Part shown: in pieces, positions 56,340-63,087 of the stretch
Layout of the letters: every line of letters begins with the position of its first letter
How positions within the stretch are numbered: the first letter of the stretch is position 1
Assembly (NCBI GenBank): GCA_016936595.1
Contig: JAFGXO010000171.1
Span: 1,584-65,583, forward strand
DNA from: Bacteroidales bacterium
Lineage (GTDB): Bacteria > Bacteroidota > Bacteroidia > Bacteroidales > JAFGUD01
Length of the DNA: 64,000 nucleotides
Direction: 5' to 3'
Notes under the pieces: model-generated
Database searches by the model: none
Seen by the model: the letters and a program-made list of their open reading frames with translations, nothing else
What the model was told of the DNA's origin: nothing
Program-made: the position numbers and the translations under genes

Positions 56340-59333
56340 TTAATTATTCATATTTTTTAGTTCTTGAATTTGTTTTTTAAGAATATAAATTTCTGCATCT
56401 TTTTGTTCAAGTAATACATCTAATTTTTCTAATTTTGTTCTAAATTCACGTGCTTTATGTTTATTTTTTTCTGCTTCTGCTTTGTATTGTTTATCTTTAG
56501 AAATTAATTGATTTCGCAAAGTTAAATCCTGAATTAAAGCGTATAAAAACAATTCATCTTTTTGAGTAAATGAAACCAAAGTAACATTTGCAGGGAATTC
56601 GGTTCCGTTACTTTTTTTATGCACCCATTCAAATGAATTAAAACCTTTTTCGATGGCGATATTAATCATTTCTGCAACTTTTTTCATTGAATTTTGACCA
56701 TCGGGCTGAAGTTCAGGAGATACAAATGATGGGGATATTCCAATAAATTCGTCTTTACTTTCAAACTCAAATAGTTCTAAAGTGGCATTGTTACAATCAA
56801 TAAAATTGCCGTTTTTAATTACTTGAATTGAATCAGAAGAATGCTCAAAAAGAAATTTAAATTGTTCGGCTTGATATTCGGCTCTTTTAACCAATTCTTC
56901 ATTTTTTTTGAGTTGCAAATTATTTCTTTCAAGTGATTTTTTTAAAACATCTTCAGAAGCATGAATTTTTTGGGATAATTCCTGAGCAGCTTTTTTCTCT
57001 TTAAGAGCTAAATCAGAAACAGATTGTAATTCATTTATTTTTTTAAGAATTTCTTGTTCTTTAATTTGAAGTTCATTTGTTTGAGTAAGTAATTCTTCTT
57101 GCATTTCAATTTGTTCGGTAATTTCAATAATTATGCTTATAAACTTAATTACCTCACCTGTTTTATCAGTAAAAGGCACAATATACAGCTTGAACCAGAA
57201 TATTTTATTTGTTTTAACAAATTTTAATTGATGTTGAGTTTCTTTGCCTTCAATTAAATCTTGCCATAAATTTAAATCAGCCAGCCTACTTTCTTCATTG
57301 TAATCAAATTCAGATATATGATGTCCAATAATGTCGTTGCTTTCCATCTCAAAAGTTTTATTTAATCTTTCGGGAACCGACACAATGTTACCATCAACAT
57401 CTAACTCAATAATAAATGCGGCTTTATTAATTGCAGAAAGCAGGTTATTAAGCTCAGATTCTCTCTGAGTTGCTCTTTCTTGAGTTGCCTGAAGCTCTTC
57501 AAGGTTTTGCCTTAACTCTTCTTCTTTAAGAGACCGTTGTTCGGCTTCAATTTTTGCCGAATCAAGAAGCTTAACAGTTCGTTGATTTATTTTTGCAATA
57601 GAGATAGTTGAAGCAATTGATTCGGCAATTTTTTCAACAAATACTATTTGATGTTTTTCTAACTTATTAAAAGAAGCAAGCTCGATAACACCCAAAACAT
57701 TTTCTTCAAACTTAAGCGGAACAATAAGCAAACTTCGAGGATTAGCACCACCCAAGCCTGAAGTAATACTGATATAATCTTCGGGTATTTCGGTCATGTA
57801 AATTGTTGCCTTTTCAACAGCACAAGTTCCAATTAACCCTTCTCCCATTAAAAATTCTTTTCTCTTTTTCCTTTCTTTACTATAAGCATAAGAAGCAATT
57901 AATTCAATAATTTTATCTTTATGTTCATCATTTATAATAAACATTCCTCCTTGATTTGCTTCTAAATAATTAACTAAGTCTTTAATAATAAGAGAAGCTA
58001 ATTCAGAAATATCTTTTGTTGATTGACGCAAAACATCTGAGAATTTAGCAATACCGGTATTAACCCACTCTCTAATTTTATCCTCTTCTTTTCTTTTTAC
58101 ATCTTCAATTTGGGCATTTTTCAAATTATCTCTTAAAAGAATAAGAGCATTACCCAGTTCATCTTGGTCGCTAACAGGCGAATAATTATATTTAAAATTA
58201 CCATTACCAATTTCAGAAGCAAACACGGAGGCATCTTTGAGCGATTTTACAACCAGACCAATAGTGTCGGACATTTGTACTAATTCGGAAAAATATTTAG
58301 GCTCAAAAACAAAATCGGGTATTCTACCAGTTTTAAGAGGTTCAATAAATTCTTTCAATTCCTGAATTCTACGAAATAAAATTCGAGGAAGGAAAATATT
58401 AATAAGCATAAAAAACAAGAAAAAAGAAACAGCGAGATATAAAATAAACTTTTTAGTTTCAACTCTTTTTGATGTAACATCTTGAACGATATAATTTACT
58501 GAAGTAATAAATGCGTCTTCAAAAGAATTATTTATATCACTCCATTGCATCATTAAATTGGCTTGGTCGTTCAAAAAGAGTTTTCTGTCGATATTAACTA
58601 ATTTACTGAAAGATTGTTTATAATCATTTACACTTGAAATAAATTCGCTAGAGATGTTATTTGAAACAGGAATAAATTGAGTTGTGTCGATAACACCTGT
58701 ATCTCTAACGATTTGTTGTTGGCGAACGTATGAATTAAGGTACGTAAAATAATCTAAATATTCTTCGTAGCTGTCAAAATTTGGAGAATTAAGATAAGCT
58801 AAGAAATTATTGTTCATTGAATTGAGATAGCGTAGAATTTGTGGATCATTAGTGGAGCTTATTGCAGTTTGATAAAAAGAGAAACAGTTGCCAATTATTC
58901 CGGTTTTTTTAGACCCCCGAAGGAACAGATTATGAGAGATTTGGAAAAAAACATCTTTAATTTGTTCAATATTTTCGGTGTAAAGTTGAATATCATCACC
59001 TAACTCCAATTTTTCGGTAAGCTCCAAGGCTTTTAAAGAATCCATGGTTAATTTTGCATCAGAAAGGATAATTTCTTGTCTTTTAAGGAATTTACTTTGT
59101 TCGGTTTGAAAAAAAACAGGATCGTTTTCGTAATGAATTAAGAAATCTTTTTGGGCTTGCTGTGCTTTAGTCCATTTCAAATAGGCTTTTCTAAATGAAC
59201 TTGAATAATCGATATAATTATATGTTTTTGATACGTCGTCAACGAGTCCGATGAACACTATTAGAAAAAAAACTGACGTAATAGTTAATATAAGAATAAG
59301 AAATAGACGAATACTTATTTTTTTCATGAGCAT
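56340..59333 (-). CDS. Membrane multi-sensor protein: TM, ~270-aa extracytoplasmic domain, TM, HAMP, GAF, coiled coil, PAS, coiled coil, PAS, coiled coil; no recognisable output domain
   Basis: 997 aa. TM1 is LFLILILTITSVFFLIVFIGL and TM2 is FILYLAVSFFLFFMLINIFL. The HAMP-like segment follows. The GAF region is LANQGGMFIIND...GEGLIGTCAVEKATIYM...LIVPLKFEENVLGVIELAS. Two PAS-like segments are present (FIIELDVDGNIVSV... and FKFLFEHSSDSIQVI...FEWVHKKSNGTEFPANV). I found no H-box/HATPase, GGDEF/EAL, MCP or HTH motif. Its stop lies 3 nt before the H-NOX start. Confidence 0.8.
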   Translation of the reverse strand: MLMKKISIRLFLILILTITSVFFLIVFIGLVDDVSKTYNYIDYSSSFRKAYLKWTKAQQAQKDFLIHYENDPVFFQTEQSKFLKRQEIILSDAKLTMDSLKALELTEKLELGDDIQLYTENIEQIKDVFFQISHNLFLRGSKKTGIIGNCFSFYQTAISSTNDPQILRYLNSMNNNFLAYLNSPNFDSYEEYLDYFTYLNSYVRQQQIVRDTGVIDTTQFIPVSNNISSEFISSVNDYKQSFSKLVNIDRKLFLNDQANLMMQWSDINNSFEDAFITSVNYIVQDVTSKRVETKKFILYLAVSFFLFFMLINIFLPRILFRRIQELKEFIEPLKTGRIPDFVFEPKYFSELVQMSDTIGLVVKSLKDASVFASEIGNGNFKYNYSPVSDQDELGNALILLRDNLKNAQIEDVKRKEEDKIREWVNTGIAKFSDVLRQSTKDISELASLIIKDLVNYLEANQGGMFIINDEHKDKIIELIASYAYSKERKKRKEFLMGEGLIGTCAVEKATIYMTEIPEDYISITSGLGGANPRSLLIVPLKFEENVLGVIELASFNKLEKHQIVFVEKIAESIASTISIAKINQRTVKLLDSAKIEAEQRSLKEEELRQNLEELQATQERATQRESELNNLLSAINKAAFIIELDVDGNIVSVPERLNKTFEMESNDIIGHHISEFDYNEESRLADLNLWQDLIEGKETQHQLKFVKTNKIFWFKLYIVPFTDKTGEVIKFISIIIEITEQIEMQEELLTQTNELQIKEQEILKKINELQSVSDLALKEKKAAQELSQKIHASEDVLKKSLERNNLQLKKNEELVKRAEYQAEQFKFLFEHSSDSIQVIKNGNFIDCNNATLELFEFESKDEFIGISPSFVSPELQPDGQNSMKKVAEMINIAIEKGFNSFEWVHKKSNGTEFPANVTLVSFTQKDELFLYALIQDLTLRNQLISKDKQYKAEAEKNKHKAREFRTKLEKLDVLLEQKDAEIYILKKQIQELKNMNN

Positions 59334-59643
59334 ACTATTTTATTAATACAAAATAAGAGAAACAAAACACATCTATTTAAAAATAATTTTAAAAGTCTTT
59401 GTTCAAAAAAATGATATTTTGACAAATTTATAAATTTTTATTTTAAATAAAAAAGGTAAAAAAAAGGCAGATACAAATATTTTGTTCCACAAGCATTAAT
59501 ATTCAATTAATCAACACATTACAAGTATTGTGATTATCTAAAAAAAAAAGAATAAAAAGTATGTACAGCAATATATTTTTCGATTTTTTCGATTTTTTTG
59601 ATATTATTGCCAAATATAAAACTTATCAGTAAAAATTTCAGTT

Positions 59644-61470
59644 ATGAAAAAAATTACGTTTTTGTTTATATCTTTTTTCCTTTTTCACCTAACAATATTA
59701 AGCCAAGGAAAAGATGCGATGATACAAGAAGACACAAACATTTATCCAATTGAGCTTGATTTTCAGATAAATAATAAAAGTGCAGATATAAATGATGGTT
59801 TTGTTATTGTAGATGTTTATGGAGGAGTTCCGCCATACAAGTATTACTGGTCAAAACCTGACTTATCTTTAAATACATCAATTGGTGAAAAATTAACTGA
59901 AGGGCAGAAATATGAACTCACTGTTTATGATTCAAATGGAGATAGTGCAACTGCAGAAATAATGGTTCCTGTAAAGTCTTTAAACGAAAGATTTAACTCT
60001 GCGTTGGTTCCAGTTGTAAATATGATGAGTAAATTTATTATGGCTGATATATTTGCGTTGCTTAATTTGTACGACCCCATAATAAGAGATGATCAAGGTG
60101 AAATTTTACGTTCACCAAACGGAGATCCACAAAAAGTGAGTATTCCATTTATTGTAGTTTGGTTAATAATTGGAGCAACATTTTTCACTTTATATTTAGG
60201 ATTTATAAATATTAGGGGTTTTAAACTTGCGATACAACATGTAGCCGGCAAATTTGACAAGAAGGAGCAAAAAGGAGAAGTATCTCATTTTCAGGCTTTA
60301 ACAACTGCACTTTCGGCAACAGTAGGGTTAGGAAACATAGCCGGAGTAGCAATTGCAATAGCCATTGGCGGACCCGGGGCAACTTTTTGGATGATTGTTG
60401 CCGGTTTATTAGGCATGTCAACAAAATTTGCTGAGTGTACTTTAGGTGTAAAATACAGAAATATAAATAAAGACGGAGTTGTTTCAGGTGGCCCCATGTA
60501 CTATATAAATAAAGCGTTTAAAGACCGAAAAATGGGTGGTTTAGGAAAAGTTTTAGCAGCAGTTTTTGCTGTGTTAATAATTGGAGGTTCGCTTGGCGGA
60601 GGGAATATGTTTCAGGCAAATCAGGCGTTTGCACAATTAAGCAATATGATGCCACAAATTAGCAACTTTGGAGCGTTGTTTGGAGTTATTTTAGCTGTTT
60701 TAGTTGGATCGGTTGTATTAGGAGGTATAAAAAGTATTGCAAAAGTTACAGACAAAATTGTTCCTTTTATGGCTTTATTTTATGTGCTTGTTGCATTTAT
60801 TATTATTATCATGAACATTAAAAATTCGGGACAAGCATTTCATTTAATTATTAATGGAGCTTTTAGTGCATCGGCATTAAAAGGAGGTGTTATTGGAGTT
60901 ATGATTGTAGGATTTCAAAGAGCAGCATTCTCAAATGAAGCCGGGGTTGGATCTGCTTCGGTTGCTCATTCGGCAGTAAAAACAGATGAGCCTGTTACAG
61001 AAGGACTTGTATCCTTATTAGAACCATTTATAGATACAGTTGTAATATGTACAATGACAGCATTAGTAATAATTTTTACCGGATTTTATAATAATCCGGG
61101 GGAATTAAACGGAGTTGAATTAACTTCGGCGGCTTTTGGCTCAGTTTTTTCATGGTTTCCATACTTGTTAATAGTTGCCATAATGCTATTTGCTTTTTCA
61201 ACAATGATTTCGTGGTCATACTATGGTTTAAACGGCTTTAAATATTTATTTGGCGGCATTATTAAAAACGAAAAAACTCTTAGAAATATATATTATGCAA
61301 TCTTTTTAATATTCATAGTAATAGGCTCTGCTTCAAGTTTAGGTGCAGTGATTGATTTTTCGGATATGATGATTTTAAGCATGGCATTACCTAATATATT
61401 TGCTCTTTATGTGCTTTCTAAAGAATTAAAACTTGATTTAAATAAATACTTGAAAAAAATAAAAAAATAA
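59644..61470 (+). CDS. Alanine/glycine:cation symporter (AGCS family) with an N-terminal signal peptide and SprB-repeat-like domain
   Basis: 608 aa. The core motifs are [30 protein letters not shown] and [11 protein letters not shown]. Residues ~25-105 read [24 protein letters not shown]...[26 protein letters not shown] and resemble a SprB repeat. Confidence 0.85.
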
Positions 61471-61521: not shown

Positions 61522-63087
61522 TTGAAAAATAAATTCGTAAAATATTATTTAGGTTCAATTATACTATTGTTTATTGGTTTAGCCTTTTCAAAAATAATTA
61601 TAAGTTTATCCCAAATTGCATTATTAGTTATATGGATTTTTGAAGGTGATTTTAATCAAAAATTTAAAAATCTAAAACAAAACAAAGCTGCATTAATTTT
61701 TTTGTCGATATTTGGGTTATTTATCATTGGTATGTTATGGACGAATAACCTAAAAGCAGGATTAAATGAACTCAAATTAAAATTACCTTTATTCATACTT
61801 CCATTTATATTTTCTACAATTACACATTTTAGTAAAAAAGAACTGCAAATTATTCTGTCGGCGTTTGTTTTTGTTGTTTTTTCAAAAACTATCGAAAGCA
61901 GCTTTTTTATTATTGGCGGCAAATTTTCTCCATCATTGGAACAAATTTCAAATAAAATATCTCATATCAGATATTCTTTGATGATTGATTTTGCAATTTT
62001 TTCGATTATTTACATTATAACTTCCTATAAAAAAACAAAAACTAAATATAAAATACTATCGCTAAGTTTAATTGTTTGGTTTCTTGCTTTTCTAATTTTT
62101 ATTCAATCACTTACAGGAATAATAATACTTTTTTTATTAGTTATCGGATTAGGTATTTACTTTATTTCAAAATCAAATAAAATATCAATTAAAATTACAT
62201 CTCTAATTATTGTTCTTTTTCTAATTTTTTCCACTTCAATTTATTTATATAATCAATATAAAAACTTTTACACAATTAAAGATCCTAACTTTAATAGTTT
62301 GCCACAATACACCGAATCAGGAAACGAATATTATCATAATATTGATAATTTTAGATTTGAAAATGGACATCATGTTGGATATTTTTACTGCAAGAAAGAA
62401 ATTGAACAAGAATGGAATAAAATTAGCCACGTGAAATTTAATCAAAAAGGAAGCAATGGTTTTCTGATTAAATTTACGATAGTAAGGTATATGACTTCTT
62501 TGGGTTTACCAAAAGATTCGGTTGGAGTGTCAAAACTAACACCCACTGATATTGCTAATATTGAGAAAGGATTATCTAACTACAAATTTGCCAACACATT
62601 AAGCATTTCTAATAGAATATATAAAGTAATTTGGCAAATACACGAATACAAAAACACAAAAGACGCTAATAATCAATCAATTACACAAAGATACGAATAT
62701 TTATTAACAAGTTTTGAAATTATTCAGAAAAATTTATTTTTGGGAGTGGGAACCGGCGACGTAAAAGACGCATTTAAACAACAATACATTGAAGACAATA
62801 GTATATTAAAAGAAAAAAACAGACGCAGAAGTCATAATCAATTAGTTACTTTTATTCTTACTTTAGGTATTATTTTGGGTACTTGGTGTATTATAGCTCT
62901 ATTTTTACCTTTTATTATTAATAAAAAACATGCGGAATTTTTACCAACAATATTTTTAGTTATAAGTATTTTATCAATGCTAACAGACAATACTTTAGAA
63001 ACTTCGATTAGCGTGAGTTTTTTTGCTGTTTTTTATTCTTTATTGATTTTACAAATCACAGAAAAAAAATCAAATATTGACAATTAA
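61522..63087 (+). CDS. O-antigen ligase / polymerase-like polytopic membrane protein
   Basis: 521 aa (TTG start as tracked). It has many TM helices, a large loop (residues ~250-420), then the RRRSHNQLVTFILTLGIILG motif resembling the Wzy_C/O-antigen ligase signature. Confidence 0.65.
   Translation: MKNKFVKYYLGSIILLFIGLAFSKIIISLSQIALLVIWIFEGDFNQKFKNLKQNKAALIFLSIFGLFIIGMLWTNNLKAGLNELKLKLPLFILPFIFSTITHFSKKELQIILSAFVFVVFSKTIESSFFIIGGKFSPSLEQISNKISHIRYSLMIDFAIFSIIYIITSYKKTKTKYKILSLSLIVWFLAFLIFIQSLTGIIILFLLVIGLGIYFISKSNKISIKITSLIIVLFLIFSTSIYLYNQYKNFYTIKDPNFNSLPQYTESGNEYYHNIDNFRFENGHHVGYFYCKKEIEQEWNKISHVKFNQKGSNGFLIKFTIVRYMTSLGLPKDSVGVSKLTPTDIANIEKGLSNYKFANTLSISNRIYKVIWQIHEYKNTKDANNQSITQRYEYLLTSFEIIQKNLFLGVGTGDVKDAFKQQYIEDNSILKEKNRRRSHNQLVTFILTLGIILGTWCIIALFLPFIINKKHAEFLPTIFLVISILSMLTDNTLETSISVSFFAVFYSLLILQITEKKSNIDN

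Follow-up and report, generated by a model that had tools for sequence, protein, structure and literature searches.

Why would a bacterial amino acid symporter begin, ahead of its membrane core, with an exported domain that resembles a repeat of giant adhesins? The question is raised by a gene at 59644..61470 of the window, by which is meant the whole stretch of DNA that was analysed, 64,000 nucleotides of contig JAFGXO010000171.1 from a Bacteroidales bacterium. An earlier note on this DNA had read the interval 59644-60040 as a secreted domain of the SprB-repeat type fused to a transporter of the AGCS family. That interval encodes residues 1-132, which comprise the signal peptide, a linker, an immunoglobulin-like (Ig-like) domain and the first part of a membrane-proximal helix, and the two peptides quoted in the note are present at residues 51-73 and 84-109 of the gene product. 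The answer favored here is that the product is an AGCS transporter of the inner membrane which would carry a rigidly mounted periplasmic Ig-like accessory domain acting in cis, and we put the probability of this explanation as a whole at roughly one half.

An AGCS transporter with an N-terminal extension

The gene can be divided into the following elements, listed with their window coordinates and strand.

59644..61470, + strand: complete open reading frame (ORF) of an AGCS symporter with a predicted N-terminal periplasmic module; 608 amino acids plus stop, ATG start
59644..59703, + strand: predicted signal peptide (residues 1-20), MKK followed by 16 hydrophobic residues and ILS; predicted signal peptidase I (SPI) cleavage between S20 and Q21
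59704..59748, + strand: variable, probably disordered linker (residues 21-35), with the most gap-rich and variable alignment columns
59749..59979, + strand: predicted single SprB-type Ig-like beta-sandwich (residues 36-112, 77 amino acids) with no cysteine pair and with family-specific I49, T85 and E86
59980..60144, + strand: predicted amphipathic helix (residues 113-139) and hairpin (residues ~143-165), together residues 113-167, with the motifs E-K-I-N, P..V, MAD.FA, YDP and PNGDP
60145..60213, + strand: first transmembrane helix (TM1; residues 168-190), the peripheral AGCS helix beginning IPFIVVWL, with a Kyte-Doolittle (KD) peak of 2.29; the alignment to AgcS begins at AgcS residue 17, the start of its TM1
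60214..61467, + strand: LeuT-fold transport core (residues 191-608), assigned from PF01235, TIGR00835 and the comparison of an AlphaFold2 (AF2) model with 6cse; it opens with a K/R-rich, predicted cytoplasmic loop (residues 191-215)

PF01235 (Na_Ala_symp) matches residues 205-607 (E=1.9e-125, 419.7 bits against a cut-off of 24), and TIGR00835 (agcS) matches residues 170-602 with 411.9 bits against a cut-off of 272.65. The solved AgcS chain of Methanococcus maripaludis (PDB 6cse) aligns through its residues 17-434 to residues 168-594 of the query with E=1.6e-88. The full AF2 model, built on 86 homologues and with a mean predicted local distance difference test (pLDDT) score of 80.2, superimposes on 6cse with a target-normalised TM-score of 0.91, a root-mean-square deviation of 2.5 A and 40% identity. 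By profile and by model, the product is an AGCS-family symporter (TC 2.A.25), as the earlier note had proposed for the core, and an identical database protein (P0001) bears the name 'amino acid carrier protein [Bacteroidales bacterium]'.

What would such a core transport? Seven substrate- and sodium-site residues of AgcS are kept in the query (AgcS/query Q170/Q324, F273/F429, S274/S430, E276/E432, D308/D464, T366/T520 and W370/W524), all of them invariant or nearly so among the 86 homologues, and the core is almost certainly a cation-coupled importer of a small amino acid. One AgcS pocket residue, Ile165, is replaced by Gly319 (window 60598..60600), which is invariant in the clade, while the other pocket residues are conserved. 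Because of this replacement, the pocket is probably roomier than that of AgcS. AGCS transporters are widespread but few have been characterised, according to the authors of the work on GutA, and the substrates of those that have been vary, being Ala and Gly for AgcS and Gln for GutA. The AgcS mutant I165A also admits Val and Leu. Together with Gly319, the behavior of this mutant and the existence of glutamine-carrying members indicate that the substrate range may be broader than, or different from, Ala and Gly.

Predicted export of the extension

How does the extension reach the far side of the membrane? The N-terminus has a KD peak over 19 residues of 1.72 at residues 4-22. Position 20 (-1 relative to the predicted cleavage site) is Ala, Ser or Gly in 83 of 86 homologues and position 21 (+1) is Gln in 75 of 86, a pattern that bears out the first of the two options in the earlier note, a signal peptide or a transmembrane segment. 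In Bacteroidetes, SPI cleavage exposes Gln, which is known as the 'Q-rule' (PMC5837995), and Sec-dependent export with SPI cleavage before Gln21 is probable.

An alternative is that the hydrophobic segment persists as an uncleaved anchor, such that the protein would have 12 transmembrane (TM) helices and a cytoplasmic N-terminus, with the Ig-like domain forming a periplasmic loop between TM0 and TM1. The 16-17 hydrophobic residues after MKK would suit an anchor, as would the helix that AF2 places at residues 2-18 (pLDDT 76-81), and cleavage itself is a prediction from sequence. An anchor would not, however, account for the retention of a small residue at -1 and Gln at +1 while the hydrophobic region between MKK and the site varies (mean top-residue frequency 0.36), a combination that is the signature of SPI cleavage in Bacteroidetes. 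Nor is it favored by the stretch just past the predicted site, which is variable and disordered, with pLDDT below 50 at residues 24-32. For these reasons an uncleaved anchor is considered unlikely, and a cleaved signal peptide followed by a flexible linker is retained as the preferred description of the N-terminus.

A single-copy relative of the SprB repeat

Is the exported domain a SprB repeat? The AF2 model of the domain alone has six strands (pLDDT 86.5), and its Foldseek neighbours in the PDB are Ig-like domains of decoration proteins, intimin, PKD and FN3 domains, with query-normalised TM-scores (TMq) of 0.5-0.69 and none below E=3e-3. A sequence-profile search for structures returned phage Ig-like decoration domains alone, and these weakly; no solved SprB repeat was found for comparison among the structure and profile matches. 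The SprB core motif, D-G ... G-G-x-x-P-Y-x-Y-x-W-S ... L-x-x-G-x-Y-x-(V/L)-x-V-x-D, is present. Scored with the Pfam SprB model PF13573, which has a gathering score of 28, the window copy reaches 17.8 bits within the whole protein and 22.0 bits when the domain is taken alone. Of 62 orthologous domains, 52 are matched by the same model at E<=0.01, the lowest value being 6.3e-8, and the orthologue of Salegentibacter salinarum clears the threshold with 29.2 bits.

The converse search leads to the same family. A profile of the module run against 1.84 billion representative proteins retrieved 41,774 proteins, a result that is saturated by giant adhesins and gives no count of fusions or of other single-domain fusions. 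The best 150 of the 41,774 are all 2,400-7,400 amino acids long with 25-88 matched repeats each, and the match covers profile positions ~2-78, the whole Ig unit of ~75 amino acids; one of these giant proteins (P0227) has 32 Pfam SprB repeats. Comparison of the transporter-linked domain, column by column, with 381 adhesin repeats taken from these 150 proteins reveals 13 conserved positions in common (N44, D51, G52, G60, G61, P64, Y65, W69, S70, L84, G87, Y90 and D96). An hhalign comparison of the two sets gives a probability of 99.7%, which is to be read with the fact that the repeats had been picked with the same hidden Markov model. Two columns that hold Cys in 58% and 97% of the adhesin repeats correspond to Ala47 and Asp100 here and are not Cys in the AGCS family. 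Furthermore, Glu86 is invariant and Thr85 and Ile49 are conserved in the transporter family, at positions where adhesin repeats have Ala (at Glu86) or are variable. There is one Ig copy per protein, N-terminal to an inner-membrane transporter and outside any tandem array; the 64-kb window holds no further SprB-type copy, and the collected loci hold no additional Ig-domain ORFs.

The domain is best described, on these alignments, as a diverged, single-copy and cysteine-free relative of the SprB repeat, with a kinship that is clear at the level of the family. By the Pfam cut-off, by the cysteine pair and by tandem arrangement, it is not a SprB member. The SprB-like repeat recognized in the earlier note holds at the level of the family, through the orthologues and the giant-protein matches, and the window copy scored by itself stays below the Pfam threshold. 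The invariant Glu86 and the conserved Thr85 and Ile49 suggest a contact that is specific to the transporter family.

One hypothesis for such a domain, put forward in the earlier note beside regulation and partner docking, is substrate capture, in which it would bind amino acids or peptides and pass them to the transport vestibule in the manner of a fused substrate-binding protein. Fused substrate-binding domains do occur in some ABC importers, and the acidic Glu86 could in principle touch an amino group. The predicted 77-residue sandwich of six strands is nevertheless unlike the folds of periplasmic binding proteins, none of which appears beside the Ig, PKD, FN3 and intimin matches in Foldseek; most of its conserved positions are fold-defining residues common to adhesin repeats; and LeuT-fold symporters, AgcS included, bind their substrate directly. 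Substrate capture is thus very unlikely, and we do not think that the Ig-like domain serves as an adhesin or as a substrate trap. An accessory role beside the transporter remains the favored reading of the domain.

The helix-hairpin and the topology of the module

Between the Ig-like domain and TM1 lies a second part of the extension, the helix and hairpin of residues 113-167, which the earlier note had overlooked and which is the better conserved of the two. AF2 predicts helices at residues 113-132 and 136-139, with isolated strand bridges at 146-163 (pLDDT 75-81), and the hydrophobic moment of residues 113-132 is 1.46. Seven of the 55 positions in the helix-hairpin are invariant, compared with 4 of 77 in the Ig-like domain.

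On which side of the membrane does this module lie? The AgcS structure paper describes a periplasmic N-terminus, a cytoplasmic C-terminus, and a TM1 that stands outside the helical bundle and has no role in translocation. In the query, the loop after TM1 (residues 191-215) contains 6 K/R versus 3 D/E, and the hairpin that precedes TM1 is acidic, holding 5 D/E versus 3 K/R, a distribution that fits an out-to-in TM1. By homology to the solved AgcS, and in agreement with this charge pattern and with the predicted signal peptide, the Ig-like domain and the helix-hairpin are assigned to the periplasm, which is the outer face to which the earlier note had allotted the domain.

Two further explanations would overturn this arrangement. 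In the first, residues 121-140 (window 60004..60063) would be a genuine extra TM segment, such that the membrane would separate the Ig-like domain from the hairpin. The KD value over 19 residues (121-139) reaches 1.62, where the usual TM cut-off is ~1.6, and sequence-only predictors may call this stretch a TM and so invert the predicted topology of the family. Such a segment is unlikely because it would place either the K/R-rich loop 191-215 outside or the domain led by a signal peptide inside, in contradiction to the AgcS structure and the positive-inside pattern; because the helix holds K130 and the invariant D135 and has a high hydrophobic moment; and because a soluble domain of ~90 amino acids is inserted into the hairpin in Flavobacteriaceae. 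In the second explanation, the true start codon lies downstream and the extension is not translated. Residues 1-167 are conserved at the protein level in all 120 of the best homologues and in 78 ORFs from GTDB genomes, so a downstream start is excluded and the annotated start stands. Taken together, the chance that either explanation applies is exceedingly small, and the periplasmic module remains the preferred topology.

Distribution and orthologues

How common is the fusion? The 120 best homologues in a collection of 5.8 billion proteins are, without exception, 569-662 amino acids long, with 60-100% identity over 93-100% of the query and with the module conserved. Those that are named come from Bacteroidales, Bacteroidetes or Chlorobi metagenome-assembled genomes (MAGs) and are called either 'amino acid carrier protein' or else 'alanine/glycine:cation symporter family protein'. 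The N-terminal 166 amino acids alone retrieved no homologue in a word-indexed search, which reflects a limitation of the index rather than rarity, since the full-length query gave 120; short fragments can look like orphans in such a search when they are not. A scan of GTDB with one genome per species and the TM1 motif IPF[VI]VVWL[VI], which gives a lower bound because variants of the motif are missed, found confirmed relatives in at least 266 species genomes. They include Bacteroidales MAGs, Marinilabiliales, Draconibacterium and other Prolixibacteraceae, Chlorobiota MAGs and many Flavobacteriales, with Salegentibacter, Christiangramia, Autumnicola, Gelidibacter and Haloflavibacter as cultured genera among the last. 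From 80 kept loci, 78 ORFs were recovered and all 78 contain the Ig domain, one of them weakly (L058); two short loci (L021 and L066) had no ORF above the search cut-off.

The protein has the standard architecture of a large AGCS clade of Bacteroidota. The interpretation given in the earlier note is supported in its anatomy and in the side of the membrane; it is weakened by the frequency of the fusion, since the note had itself named a common fusion as a point that would count against it. As to annotation, which the note had also raised, precomputed PF13573 and PF01235 domains are recorded together on 8 of the 120 best homologues, and the protein names read 'amino acid carrier protein' or similar. 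Both halves are known families, and domain databases record their pairing implicitly; the architecture itself is unremarked in the searchable literature, where no paper on a fusion of an SprB repeat to a symporter was found.

In 50-58 of 81 loci, the gene lies in a conserved block that comprises class II fructose-bisphosphate aldolase (fbaA), AccD, the AGCS gene, a ComEA-like helix-hairpin-helix protein, acyl-CoA dehydrogenase and a XerD-like recombinase, and this block spans Bacteroidales and Flavobacteriales (for example L004, 3720..10299). Such conserved housekeeping synteny speaks for an ancient core gene that has been passed on vertically.

The Flavobacteriaceae orthologues (L046-L080) deserve separate mention. 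They are ~700 amino acids long (for example L047, 5941..8016, of Salegentibacter salinarum) and contain an extra insert of ~90 amino acids in the hairpin, between YDP and PNGD. This insert has a weak likeness to the biotinyl/lipoyl barrel-sandwich PF00364 (18.4 bits versus a cut-off of 22.1) and no obvious lipoyl-lysine motif. The reading of these ORFs as the module joined to a different transporter was rejected, as their sequences and Pfam matches identify them as AGCS with the 90-residue insert. In 14 Flavobacteriaceae loci there are two or three AGCS ORFs within ~4 kb, and where there are three, as is the case in two loci, one or more of them is a fragment that starts inside the insert (L050, 463..2121).

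Two contigs in the collection are MAG contigs labelled as other phyla that nonetheless carry the fusion of the Bacteroidota type. One of these (L030, PAVT01000070.1) is labelled Verrucomicrobia; several of its neighbouring genes, including those that flank the AGCS gene, match Vicingaceae/Flavobacteriales loci at ~50-87% amino-acid identity, and for this reason mis-binning is likely. The other (L043), labelled Planctomycetota, has no neighbours in common with the other loci and could be a case of horizontal transfer or of mis-binning.

Proposed role of the module

What, then, might the module do? In the 86 homologues, the mean top-residue frequency rises toward the membrane, from 0.16 in the linker (computed over residues 22-35) to 0.54 in the Ig-like domain, 0.65 in the helix-hairpin, 0.78 in TM1 and 0.81 in the core. 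The junction between the Ig-like domain and the helix (P109, S112, E115 and N118) is nearly invariant, and the sole stretch of variable length and low pLDDT precedes the domain instead of linking it to the membrane. Because the junction is nearly invariant and the flexible stretch lies on the far side, the domain is apparently mounted rigidly rather than tethered on a line as a 'fishing' domain.

The following sequence of events is envisaged. A Sec signal peptide would drive export of an N-terminal tail of ~145 residues, and SPI would probably cut before Gln21. The mature protein would open in the periplasm with a short, floppy linker followed by the cysteine-free, SprB-type Ig-like sandwich, which would be joined without a flexible spacer to the amphipathic helix and hairpin on the periplasmic face of the membrane. 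The chain would then enter the inner membrane as TM1, running from outside to inside, and continue into the ten-helix LeuT-fold core. Held in place by the helix-hairpin, the Ig-like domain may serve its own transporter by stabilising, shielding or modulating the periplasmic side, or it may mediate self-association. Domain composition, the homology of the two halves, conservation throughout the phylum and, by homology to AgcS, the periplasmic location are what the data show; signal-peptide cleavage, how the module packs against the transporter and what it does there are inferred. With moderate confidence, the module is read as a cis-acting accessory ectodomain because conservation rises toward the membrane, the junction appears rigid, some invariant residues are specific to the family and no conserved partner gene lies nearby.

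A serious and possible rival, though one that we hold to be less than probable, is docking to a partner in trans, whereby the Ig-like domain would bind a periplasmic or outer-membrane protein, peptidoglycan or a glycan and so tie the transporter to the cell envelope. In giant adhesins, repeats of the Ig-like and SprB types typically serve to bind proteins or surfaces; the invariant Glu86, absent from the adhesin repeats, is a candidate surface residue that might serve such binding; and the second, lipoyl-like soluble domain within the same module in Flavobacteriaceae suggests an elaborated interaction platform. Against this, the 81 loci show no conserved neighbour outside the housekeeping genes that would be a candidate partner gene, the domain has no flexible tether to the membrane-proximal helix, and no SprB-repeat ligand or partner was found in the sources that could be searched.

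Several points count against the cis-acting accessory domain as well. A conserved partner acting in trans, with its gene elsewhere in the genome, would be compatible with the conservation gradient too. That the signal peptide is cleaved is predicted from sequence rules, the window copy of the domain scores below the SprB gathering threshold of Pfam, and residues 121-140 reach the hydropathy of a TM helix, as described above. The clade has no characterised member, and the members of the AGCS family carry Ala, Gly or Gln.

Genomic surroundings of the window copy

The window copy lies outside the conserved synteny block, with a 997-amino-acid GAF/PAS protein upstream and a Wzy_C-like protein downstream. 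One further feature adjoins the gene.

59334..59643, + strand: AT-rich intergenic stretch of 310 bp between the divergent GAF/PAS gene and the ATG, presumed to contain the promoter and 5' leader

No Rfam family, the glycine riboswitch included, matches this leader at E<=1, and sigma-70-like matches within it do not exceed the expectation from shuffled sequence. A short tandem duplication, TTTTTCGATTTTTTCGATTTTTTT, is found at 59578..59600, ~45 bp 5' of the ATG. The divergent 997-amino-acid protein (56340..59333, - strand) has, besides an N-terminal TM segment, a GAF domain and two PAS domains along with long stretches that resemble coiled coils, with no output domain (kinase, GGDEF or the like) recognised by Pfam. 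On the other side, 51 bp 3' of the transporter gene, a polytopic membrane protein of 521 amino acids is encoded at 61522..63087 (+ strand), with its start called as TTG; its match to Wzy_C/O-antigen ligase is marginal (32.2 bits versus 31.7).

Comparison with known systems

The Bacteroidota clade with this conserved periplasmic module includes cultured and tractable genera such as Salegentibacter, Christiangramia, Gelidibacter and Draconibacterium. Should the module prove to regulate or anchor its transporter, the clade would offer a rare example of a bacterial secondary transporter with an Ig-like ectodomain fused to it; an SprB-type repeat would also have gained its first non-adhesin function, and there would be a hint of how Bacteroidota tune, in the periplasm, the uptake of amino acids. 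If the module is merely a passive appendage, the protein represents a routine lineage-specific domain architecture that is still useful for annotation: the signal peptide and the SprB-like domain can be labelled, and topology predictors may mishandle residues 121-140.

Comparison with AgcS (6CSE/6CSF) indicates the same predicted layout of 11 TM helices, with a peripheral TM1, a periplasmic N-terminus and a cytoplasmic C-terminus. The two differ ahead of TM1, where AgcS has ~16 residues and the window protein 167, made up of its signal peptide, linker, Ig-like domain, helix and hairpin, and in the pocket, where Ile165 of AgcS has given way to Gly. The orthologues of Flavobacteriaceae such as Salegentibacter and Christiangramia resemble the window protein in their signal peptide, Ig-like domain, helix, TM1 motif and AGCS core; they differ in their length of ~700 amino acids, in the hairpin insert and in the frequent presence of multiple AGCS ORFs. 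The domain itself is like the SprB repeat (PF13573) of the giant gliding adhesins that Bacteroidota secrete through type IX secretion systems (T9SS) in its motif positions, its unit of ~75 amino acids and its predicted beta-sandwich. Those repeats form tandem arrays at the cell surface, whereas here a single copy would be anchored to the inner membrane and face the periplasm; the Cys pair is missing, and the invariant Glu86 stands where adhesins have Ala.

A final parallel comes from eukaryotes, in which some solute carriers are accompanied by single-pass ancillary subunits with Ig domains, for example basigin and embigin with the monocarboxylate transporters (MCTs). By analogy, the Ig-like domain and helix-hairpin, with the lipoyl-like insert in Flavobacteriaceae, might constitute a built-in ancillary subunit that gates, stabilises or oligomerises the transporter or links it to the envelope. 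We consider this unlikely; were it true, bacteria would have in the module a cis-fused equivalent of the chaperones with Ig domains that serve eukaryotic solute carriers. The resemblance would lie in an extracytoplasmic Ig-like domain placed beside a secondary transporter by way of one peripheral helix, which is TM1 in the present case. The difference is that the bacterial domain is fused in cis and precedes the transporter, and there is no sequence relationship between the two systems, so that the parallel is one of arrangement and not of homology.

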